A stretch of DNA of 64,000 nucleotides, taken from the NCBI RefSeq assembly GCF_988243305.1, contig NZ_OZ547136.1; one strand, given 5' to 3'. The position numbers and the translations under genes were made by a program. The notes beneath the pieces are model-generated. The model was not told the origin of the DNA. It searched no databases and saw only the letters and a list, made by a program, of their open reading frames with translations. The first letter of the stretch is position 1, and every line of letters begins with the position of its first letter. Of the stretch, positions 1-17,189 are shown piece after piece.

Positions 1-28
1 ATATCTAATTAAGCAAAAGGAGGCTGAT

Positions 29-652
29 ATGAGCCATCATCACGAAGGGTGTTGTAAACATGAAGGCCAGCCACGCCATGAAGGCTGCTGCAAAGGTGAG
101 AAGTCAGAACATGAGCACTGCGGACACGGTCACCAGCATGAACACGGTCAATGCTGCAGTGGTCGCCACGGTCGCGGCGGCGGTCGTCGGCAACGTTTCT
201 TTGGTCACGGTGAATTACGTCTGGTGATTCTGGATATTCTCTCGCGCGATGACAGCCACGGTTACGAGTTGATTAAAGCGATTGAGAATCTAACCCAGGG
301 GAATTACACCCCAAGCCCGGGCGTCATCTACCCGACGCTGGATTTTCTCCAGGAGCAGTCGCTGATTACCATCCGCGAAGAGGAAGGTGGTAAGAAGCAG
401 ATTGCGCTGACCGAACAGGGCGCGCAGTGGCTGGAAGAAAACCGCGAACAGGTGGAGATGATCGAAGAACGCATCAAAGCGCGTTGCGTTGGTGCTGCAC
501 TCCGCCAGAACCCGCAAATGAAGCGGGCACTGGATAATTTTAAAGCGGTGCTGGATTTACGCGTCAACCAGAGCGATATCACTGATGCGCAGATAAAAAA
601 GATCATTGCGGTGATCGACCGCGCCGCTTTTGATATTACGCAACTGGATTAA
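29..652 (+). CDS. yqjI: PadR-family transcriptional regulator YqjI with His/Cys-rich N-terminal metal-binding tract
   Basis: 207-aa ORF with RBS aaggagg upstream; N-terminus MSHHHEGCCKHEG... and PadR-like core; matches K-12 YqjI length and position next to aer. Confidence 0.9.
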   Translation: MSHHHEGCCKHEGQPRHEGCCKGEKSEHEHCGHGHQHEHGQCCSGRHGRGGGRRQRFFGHGELRLVILDILSRDDSHGYELIKAIENLTQGNYTPSPGVIYPTLDFLQEQSLITIREEEGGKKQIALTEQGAQWLEENREQVEMIEERIKARCVGAALRQNPQMKRALDNFKAVLDLRVNQSDITDAQIKKIIAVIDRAAFDITQLD

Positions 653-659
653 TCACCGA

Positions 660-730
660 TTGCCGGATGTGGCGTGCCCTACCCCCCCGTAGGCCTGATA
701 AGATGCGCCAGCATCGCATCAGGCATTGTG
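660..730. repeat. REP/PU palindromic element between convergent yqjI and aer
   Basis: ccggatgtggcgtg...gcatcgcatcaggc palindromic GC-rich units typical of E. coli REP. Confidence 0.5.
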
Positions 731-757
731 CGCCAACCGCCGGATGCGGCATATCGA

Positions 758-2278
758 TTAATGCAGCACCGTCACCGCGTCTTCCAGTCGGCTGGCGCGG
801 TGTTTCACCATCGCCGACACCTGCGCACTCTCTTCCACCAGCTCGGCATTTTTCTGGGTGATGAGGTTAAGCTCATCCACTGCACGGGTCAGGCTGGAAA
901 GCCCATCGGCCTGTTCCAGCGTTGAATGGCTAATCTGGGCGATCAACTGGGTGACGTTTTTCACCTGTGCCACAATATCTTCCATCGTCCGTCCGGCTGC
1001 GTGTACCTGCTGCGAACCGGATTGCACCTTATCAGCACTGGCATCAATCAGCTTGCGAATATCGTTGGCAGCATTGGCGCTGCGGCTGGCTAAATGACGC
1101 ACTTCCCCTGCCACCACTGCAAAACCTTTGCCTTGTTCGCCGGCTCGTGCCGCTTCCACCGCCGCATTCAGGGCCAGAATATTGGTCTGAAACGCAATAT
1201 CGTTAATCAGCGAAGTAATGGTGCCAATGCGCTGGGTACTGTCGGCGATATCGTCCATTGTCTTGATCACCGTGGTCATCGCCTCCCCGCCCTGCACTGC
1301 CGCATTACTGGCAGTGATAGAAAGTTTATCGGCAGCCGACGCCGTGGCAGAGTTCTGTTTCACCGACGCCGCCATTTGGTTCATGGTCGCCACCGTTTGC
1401 TGAACGTTATCAACTGTCTGCTGGGTATGTTCGTTCAGTTCATCGGTGCCTTTCGCCAGCGTCTCACTGCCATTTCTGACACTGGACACCTGGCTTGAGA
1501 CATCGTTAATTAGCCAACGGCACATCAGGCCAAGCTGCCCTACCGCGCGTAATGTCAGCCCCAGCTCATCGCTGCGATTCAGATGCTCAACACTATTACG
1601 CTCTCCGGTCGCCACCTTCAGTGCCTGACGGGCGACATTTTCTATCGGGCGGACAATCTGCCATTCAAAACAGGCGCTTGCCAACAATACCACTAACGCA
1701 CAGAGGATATACGTCACCACCGGGGCAGCAACAAACCAAAGCATGACCGCCAGCAAGATAAACATCAGGGTCATCACGCCACGCGCCCGCCAGCGAAGCG
1801 GTAATGAAGGCAGTTTACCCAGCCAGCCTTTACGCACCACCAGGCCTTTATGAATACGTTTACTGGTACGTCCGGCGTTCAACGCTTTGTACAGCGGCTC
1901 CACCGCCGCGATCTCTTTATCCGTCGCCCGGGTACGAATCGACATATAGCCACTGATTTTTCCCTCGCGCACCATCGGTACCGCATTGGCCCGCACCCAA
2001 TAATGGTCGCCATTTTTGCGGCGATTTTTCACGATGCCGCTCCATGGCTCCCCTTTTTTCAGGGTGAACCACATATCTGCAAACGCCGCTTTTGGCATAT
2101 CCGGGTGACGCACCATGTTGTGCGGCTGCCCTTGTAACTCTTGCAAGGTATAGCCGCTCACCTGCACAAAAGTGTCATTAGCATGAGTGATATAGCTTTG
2201 CAGATCGGTAGTGGACATCAGAGTGGTATCGTCCGCCAGCGGGGTATTTTGCTGGGTGACATACGGATGAGAAGACAT
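758..2278 (-). CDS. aer: aerotaxis receptor Aer (PAS-FAD sensor plus MCP signalling domain)
   Basis: 506-aa ORF; N-terminal PAS region and C-terminal methyl-accepting signalling domain; identical in length to K-12 Aer. Confidence 0.95.
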
Positions 2279-2327
2279 GTTCGCGTCCTGTGCAGGTTAT
2301 ATGGTTGTTAACTTCTTGTCAGAGTTT

Positions 2328-2355
2328 ATGTCGGCCCCGCTGCGGTTATCTTTAA
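2328..2355 (-). promoter_or_regulatory. candidate sigma-28 (FliA) promoter for aer
   Basis: minus-strand reads TAAAGATA-N11-GCCGACAT, close to sigma-28 consensus TAAAGTTT-N11-GCCGATAA, about 50 nt upstream of the aer start. Confidence 0.55.
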
Positions 2356-2560
2356 CTGATTAATTTGATTTAGATCGCAATTTGCGATTAAAGCATAAAT
2401 CTAATCCCTTGATTTAAAATACTTTCACTCTGTTACTATACGAAAACGTTAATTATCTTGCCCAAAAATCAGGCAGTTGTTGCCCTGAAAGTGTGCATTT
2501 GCGCAGCAATCGCCAAATCCATACCCGACAAAAACCGTGCAAAATAACAACAGATGTTAA

Positions 2561-17189
<14,629 letters not shown>

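Follow-up and report, generated by a model that had tools for sequence, protein, structure and literature searches.

The closest described counterpart of the locus analyzed here is nfeR (yqjI, b3071) of Escherichia coli K-12, which encodes a nickel-responsive, PadR-type repressor of nfeF. The N-terminus of this protein has reportedly been noted as Cys/His-rich, and nickel is said both to bind the protein and to lower its DNA binding; conserved N-terminal cysteines are, again reportedly, needed for its nickel-induced allosteric regulation. Classical PadR proteins have a pocket in their folded domain that senses phenolic acids or drugs; NfeR, by contrast, responds to metal. The two-domain PF03551 type is represented by Bacillus subtilis PadR (PDB 5X11), which, like NfeR, combines a winged helix-turn-helix with a helical C-terminal domain; among the matches listed, PadR structures aligned to the folded body of NfeR only, and not to its N-terminal tract. 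For the tract itself, the nearest likeness is to Hpn of Helicobacter pylori and to the tails of HypB, SlyD and UreE, which are also His-rich and of low complexity, and by analogy with which flexible multidentate nickel binding may be considered. The tract shares with Hpn-type proteins a twice-repeated (E/H)EGCC motif, yet the resemblance is one of motif and composition: a BLASTP comparison of the tract with an approximate Hpn sequence gave E = 0.37, that is, no detectable homology. Moreover, Hpn-type proteins store or deliver metal, whereas in NfeR the tail forms part of a DNA-binding protein, to whose DNA-binding domain it is joined.

The window, i.e. the whole stretch of 64,000 nucleotides that was analyzed (contig NZ_OZ547136.1 of assembly GCF_988243305.1), carries at positions 29-652 of the plus strand a single long open reading frame of 207 codons plus stop. 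This is the nfeR gene of E. coli, as the initial annotation had proposed under the name YqjI, and sequence identity, synteny, PadR fold and operators all agree on this point. Positions 1-660 showed 100% nucleotide identity to nfeR of E. coli ST2747 (WP_000018015.1) and were matched in 5,423 of 5,426 complete E. coli genomes, with the matches annotated in RefSeq as nfeR, "DNA-binding transcriptional regulator NfeR"; one of the approximately 5,425 nfeR matches was located on a plasmid record. At the amino acid level, the protein was 99% identical to those of K-12 and O157. The K-12 counterpart has the same length, neighbours (nfeF, aer and ygjG) and operators, and differs at two of the 207 residues (G44S and S185T). 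A Shine-Dalgarno sequence read directly from the DNA (AAGGAGG, positions 17-23, plus strand) ends 5 nt before the ATG, which supports position 29 as the point where translation of the tract begins, and the RefSeq start of nfeR in the identical genome (L001) is the same ATG. At the other end of the gene, a terminator-like hairpin with a T-run behind it (GCGGTGATCGACCGCGCCGC TTTTGATATT), detected as a consensus match, was found at positions 608-636 (plus strand), inside the 3' end of nfeR and upstream of its stop codon (650-652).

In the identical genome, nfeF (formerly yqjH, encoding an NADPH-dependent ferric chelate reductase) lies 276 nt upstream of nfeR, divergently oriented on the opposite strand, while aer and ygjG follow downstream; the divergent nfeF arrangement was also observed in E. 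marmotae, Leclercia and Citrobacter. The 276-nt intergenic region contains three copies of the palindrome GATATATC (L001 positions 3779-3786, 3850-3857 and 3998-4005), against 0.09 expected per 8.6 kb, and we take these palindromes to be the published NfeR binding sites. The third copy sits just upstream of the nfeR ribosome-binding site. Since L001 position 4001 corresponds to window position 1, the window opens with the end of this operator core (bases ATATC, positions 1-5), and the nfeR promoter and nfeF therefore fall outside it. The spacer between nfeR and aer (positions 653-757) spans 105 nt in the window, 106 nt in strain Rb-23 and 153 nt in K-12 and O157, thus being variable in length among strains; with respect to K-12, the window combines this shorter spacer with the minor Ser44 allele. 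The spacer also holds an imperfect, REP-like palindrome (GCCTGATAAGATGC/GCATCGCATCAGGC, positions 693-724), presumably a REP element.

The first 52 residues of the protein, encoded at positions 29-184 of the plus strand, are MSHHHEGCCKHEGQPRHEGCCKGEKSEHEHCGHGHQHEHGQCCSGRHGRGGG, as read from the translation of the open reading frame and exactly as given in the initial annotation. They comprise 12 His, 12 Gly, 7 Cys and 7 Glu, so that the description of this extension as dominated by H, C, E and G was borne out: 19 of 52 residues are His or Cys, compared with a background of 3.75% across 42 long open reading frames of the same window (binomial tail, 1.9e-14), among which the runner-up 52-residue stretch contained only 8. 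The enrichment is confined to residues 1-52, with just two His and one Cys among 151 further residues of the protein. Cysteines occupy residues 8, 9, 20, 21, 31, 42 and 43, and histidines residues 3, 4, 5, 11, 17, 28, 30, 33, 35, 37, 39 and 47. Two HEGCCK motifs were identified from the translation (residues 5-10, positions 41-58, and residues 17-22, positions 77-94, both on the plus strand), and a repeat search detected the DNA repeat CATGAAGGC at 59-67 and 77-85. Further along the plus strand follow two 9-nt direct repeats (ACACGGTCA, at 124-132 and 142-150) within the stretch coding for HGHQHEHG, the Cys42-Cys43 pair with Ser44 (AGT) directly after it (152-160, located from the alignments), and a Gly/Arg-rich hinge, (S/G)GRHGRGGG (residues 44-52, positions 158-184). 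The tract had initially been assigned to positions 29-200 (57 codons), of which the part up to 184 constitutes the tract proper; the remainder corresponds to the basic linker RRQR (residues 53-56, positions 185-196, plus strand), which opens the motif RRQRFFGHG, plus one further codon. Arg56 was invariant across a 45-sequence alignment.

The placement of this low-complexity extension ahead of a PadR fold agreed with the structural predictions. Residues 1-52 had pLDDT values below 50 in the AlphaFold2 model (built with 45 relatives), and block means rose to 73 for residues 51-60 and to 84-98 in every later block. The folded body (positions 197-652, plus strand) was modelled as a winged helix-turn-helix (helices 62-73, 78-88 and 97-109; strands 113-117 and 123-127) followed by a C-terminal domain of four helices (129-137, 139-160, 162-179 and 186-204). 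Pfam domain PF03551 (PadR) was detected at residues 67-136 with 56.7 bits (cut-off 27), and a Foldseek search of the PDB with the model returned PadR-type regulators only, among the matches listed. The PDB holds no solved structure of NfeR or its tail, and a PDB search with the tract alone gave zero matches. Tandem Repeats Finder (positions 1-700, minimum score 30) detected no array, and an Rfam search of positions 1-3000 gave zero matches, so no RNA element overlaps the tract. A 55-aa open reading frame (MKASHAMKAAAKV..., positions 60-227, plus strand) crosses the tract in the alternative +2 frame; it was considered as a separate small gene and rejected as a by-product of that frame. Several database "homologues" (P0005, P0062, P0063, P0126 and P0226) start in this Ala/Lys/Thr-rich frame and then switch to that of NfeR; they seem to stem from frameshifts or wrong calls in the assemblies and not from genuine variation.

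The tract was searched in the complete E. coli genomes (n = 5,426), with variants probed by means of variant query sequences, and was found in 5,422 of them, which is why a sequencing artefact could be discarded, in line with the initial annotation. Over 172 nt, identity to the window was 95-99% in most tracts (5,389 of 5,422); 13 of the 5,422 were at least 99% identical, and the exact allele of the window was present in nine complete genomes. This allele carries Ser44 (AGT), a rare G44S replacement directly after Cys42-Cys43, where K-12, O157 and the other aligned strains have Gly44 (GGT). The tract was matched at two places in some E. coli genomes. A single length was shared by approximately 99.6% of the genomes, and about 19 exceptions were found (approximately 0.35%) in an incomplete census of variants. 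Four or five genomes had tracts at 90-95% identity and were resolved individually only in part; some of them probably carry duplication alleles.

The most frequent exception was a deletion of 18 nt (201 aa, 14 genomes), in which HGHQHE is lost exactly between the ACACGGTCA repeats, with one repeat and the spacer removed. It occurred on two sequence backgrounds differing in flanking SNPs and in their nfeF and aer alleles, a pattern that suggests, without proving it, that the deletion arose more than once. A 33-nt deletion between GAACACG repeats of the K-12-type sequence, with loss of residues 28-38, among them Cys31, was found in one genome (strain EC05, 196 aa). Two expansions affected the hinge: GGRHGRGG was tandemly duplicated in DSM 103263 (+24 nt, 215 aa, one genome), and two 21-nt units were added in two assemblies of Nissle 1917 (CM189242 and CM189243; +42 nt, 221 aa). 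The expanded unit of Nissle 1917 codes for GGRHGRG, and its nfeR product is named only "helix-turn-helix transcriptional regulator" in RefSeq. All four alleles are in-frame, fall within residues 27-52 and retain the three Cys-Cys pairs. In the remaining genome, UTME-3 (NZ_CP168984.1; L002, 1-1962), the N-terminus is lost: nfeR breaks off at the site that corresponds to window position 199, where a partial site-specific integrase pseudogene adjoins, an IS3-family transposase lies just past the pseudogene, and the entire tract and the nfeF side are gone. A constructed query with the 6-nt (HE) insertion typical of E. marmotae had no exact match in the complete E. coli genomes; what this search revealed instead was the DSM 103263 allele with +24 nt.

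The near-uniform length, together with the lack of a tandem array, points to occasional slippage at short repeats rather than to a hypervariable locus. A hypermutable (contingency) or phase-variable repeat was considered and rejected, given the absence of an array and the in-frame length variation of only about 19 in 5,423 genomes; a frameshift was likewise rejected as an explanation of the tract. The expectation that tract length may vary between strains thus held marginally, in approximately 0.35% of the genomes. According to the initial annotation, a tract identical in all strains and already characterized would make the observation merely confirmatory, and this is essentially the situation encountered, the tract being near-identical across strains and already characterized. 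The analysis confirmed that the His/Cys tract of NfeR is real and already known, the proposed reading being correct but ordinary; what the census adds is that the tract is almost invariant in length in E. coli, and under purifying selection.

The latter rests on codon comparisons between K-12 and E. marmotae, in which the tract showed eight synonymous and no non-synonymous changes plus one two-codon insertion, and the folded domain 35 synonymous changes and one non-synonymous change. By this measure, amino acid constraint on the tract within Escherichia is at least as strong as that on the folded domain, in keeping with purifying selection.

Beyond Escherichia, orthologues with conserved synteny were found in Citrobacter, Salmonella, Leclercia, Lelliottia, Phytobacter and Huaxiibacter, at 63-79% identity, or up to 82% where the folded body alone aligned. 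As in E. coli, they keep a His-rich tail and the invariant GGG-RRQRFFGHGELRL junction. Tail length was measured from the anchor RR[QK]RFFGHG, a motif present in 115 of the 120 best homologues, and ranged among these homologues from 9 to 90 residues; the shortest entries may be fragments. The extremes among syntenic orthologues were 18 residues without Cys (Leclercia) and 90 residues with 10 Cys (Citrobacter sp. R56). Both have, as in E. coli, a divergent reductase of the FAD_binding_9/SIP type and GATATATC in the intergenic region, and are thus true positional orthologues.

Differences in tail length among the syntenic orthologues reflect modules of 9-21 residues that were gained or lost. Citrobacter tails grow by whole modules (HEGCCKGEGHQHEGCHQEHHQ), and Huaxiibacter and a near relative are one 9-residue module (HHHHGRGGE) apart. 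Escherichia, Citrobacter and Salmonella have in common an N-terminal HEGCCK, another such motif, (E/D)GCCK, after it, and a Cys located 10-11 residues ahead of RRQR; the position of the first motif (residues 5-10) is kept in Escherichia and Citrobacter, and Salmonella has HEGCCK plus HDGCCK. Only Escherichia has the third Cys-Cys pair; in Citrobacter and Salmonella, one Cys stands alone at the corresponding distance from RRQR. In Leclercia, Lelliottia and Huaxiibacter, the tail is short and contains His but no Cys.

More distant relatives, at 32-46% identity, usually have an N-terminal extension rich in Gly, Arg and His (median 49 aa; exhaustive search of representatives at 50% identity), in which at least 20% His plus Cys was reached in only 23 of 141 cases and Cys-Cys motifs were sporadic. 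A SIP reductase neighbour was absent from the three distant relatives checked, two with His/Cys-rich tails (P0196 and P0264) and one with a Gly-rich tail (P0132), so the pairing with nfeF is not family-wide. In all three, GATATATC was still located just upstream of their own gene, and P0196 had three copies within the upstream 90 nt. The palindrome thus precedes the PadR gene in E. coli, in the syntenic orthologues and in distant relatives (approximately 35-42% identity) without an nfeF-type neighbour, a distribution suggesting that operator specificity and autoregulation are conserved throughout the subfamily.

Taken as a whole, these observations make it very probable that the tract is an intrinsically disordered, multidentate metal-sensing arm of NfeR, which is an autoregulated PadR-type repressor. 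Gene identity, composition, predicted disorder, PadR fold, nfeF synteny, operators and purifying selection on the tract all enter this model from the present analysis. Metal-free NfeR would occupy the GATATATC operators between nfeR and nfeF, a siderophore-interacting ferric reductase gene, and repress both genes. Upon an increase in cytoplasmic Ni(II), the tail would itself act as the metal ligand, through the imidazole groups of its His and the thiolates of its Cys residues; candidate ligands are both HEGCCK motifs, the HxHxH run and, ten residues before RRQR, the Cys42-Cys43 pair. As a conformational step, we infer that the metal-bound tail would collapse, become ordered or cross-link beside helix 1, next to the invariant GGG-RRQRFFGHG junction. 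DNA binding, or the cooperation of operator-bound dimers, would then be weakened or lost, with derepression of nfeF and nfeR.

The nickel-responsive role attributed to YqjI from the outset is in agreement with published data. Excess nickel relieves NfeR repression of nfeF (PMC7981267, citing Wang 2011 and Wang 2014), deletion of nfeR in K. pneumoniae raised nfeF 85-fold (PMC7981267), and nickel stress induces nfeR in E. coli (PMC9508795), the last of which fits autoregulation through the operator adjoining the nfeR ribosome-binding site. A nickel phenotype was, on the other hand, absent in vitro from the nfeR mutant of K. pneumoniae (PMC7981267), which counts against the sensing model. The sensing model is further supported by the retention of all three Cys-Cys pairs in the in-frame variants, and by the His-rich tail that the syntenic orthologues keep directly before the invariant junction. 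The Escherichia-specific nature of the third pair counts against it, and the Cys-free tails of Leclercia, Lelliottia and Huaxiibacter indicate that Cys ligation is not universal in the family. These Cys-free orthologues constitute the main unexplained point for cysteine-centred models.

Three other explanations of the tract were weighed, all of them less well supported than a metal-sensing arm. The tail could instead be mainly a buffer or storage arm that takes up Ni, Zn or Co without relaying any signal, comparable to Hpn, the SlyD tail or the His stretch of HypB; in that case a site within the folded PadR domain would account for regulation. Its composition and twice-repeated EGCC do recall small nickel-storage proteins, at the motif level only, and a five-fold range in tail length (18-90 aa) among syntenic orthologues is easier to reconcile with a sponge than with a precise allosteric site. 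A low-copy repressor makes, however, a poor reservoir, the invariant junction places the tail directly against the DNA-binding helix, and the amino acid sequence is strictly conserved within Escherichia; cysteine mutants, moreover, reportedly lose nickel-dependent derepression, which also counts against storage. We consider this explanation improbable. 

Seven cysteines in a tract with three vicinal pairs, next to a target gene that encodes an iron-acquisition reductase and is also under Fur control, would fit a redox or iron/Fe-S sensor, in which a disulfide or cluster would be the physiological signal and nickel an in vitro mimic; iron had also been named in the initial annotation. Several syntenic orthologues, however, have Cys-free tails and regulate the same neighbour, and nickel is the reported inducer (PMC7981267, PMC9508795), making a sensor of this kind very unlikely. 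Least plausible of the three is a low-complexity stretch of no specific function that slippage between short repeats has expanded in a largely neutral way, as the indels at short direct repeats (the 9-nt ACACGGTCA and the 21- and 24-nt duplications), the strong divergence of tail length and sequence between genera, and the Gly/Arg-rich tails without metal ligands in many distant relatives have to be set against the absence of non-synonymous change relative to E. marmotae, which disfavours neutrality, the single length in nearly all E. coli genomes, length variants that were all in-frame, and the lack of a tandem array.

The natural in-frame indel alleles and the rare G44S replacement could be used as ready-made variants for structure-function work. 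The near-invariance of the tract in E. coli, as opposed to the five-fold length range and total loss of Cys in syntenic orthologues, bears on the way in which a disordered tail may gate a PadR DNA-binding domain. As a tentative extension, which we regard as possible though doubtful, the tail may work as a modular, evolvable sensor in which metal selectivity or sensitivity is set by tail length and Cys content, with rare alleles shifting nickel thresholds. Were this the case, the alleles with shifted thresholds would be those with -6 aa (on two backgrounds), -11 aa (including Cys31), +8 aa and +14 aa, together with G44S, and in Leclercia and Lelliottia, whose tails lack Cys, sensing would rely on His residues alone, perhaps with another metal preference. 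In the same way, the presence of GATATATC before distant relatives lacking nfeF would mark a wider, uncharacterized family of tail-gated PadR metal sensors.
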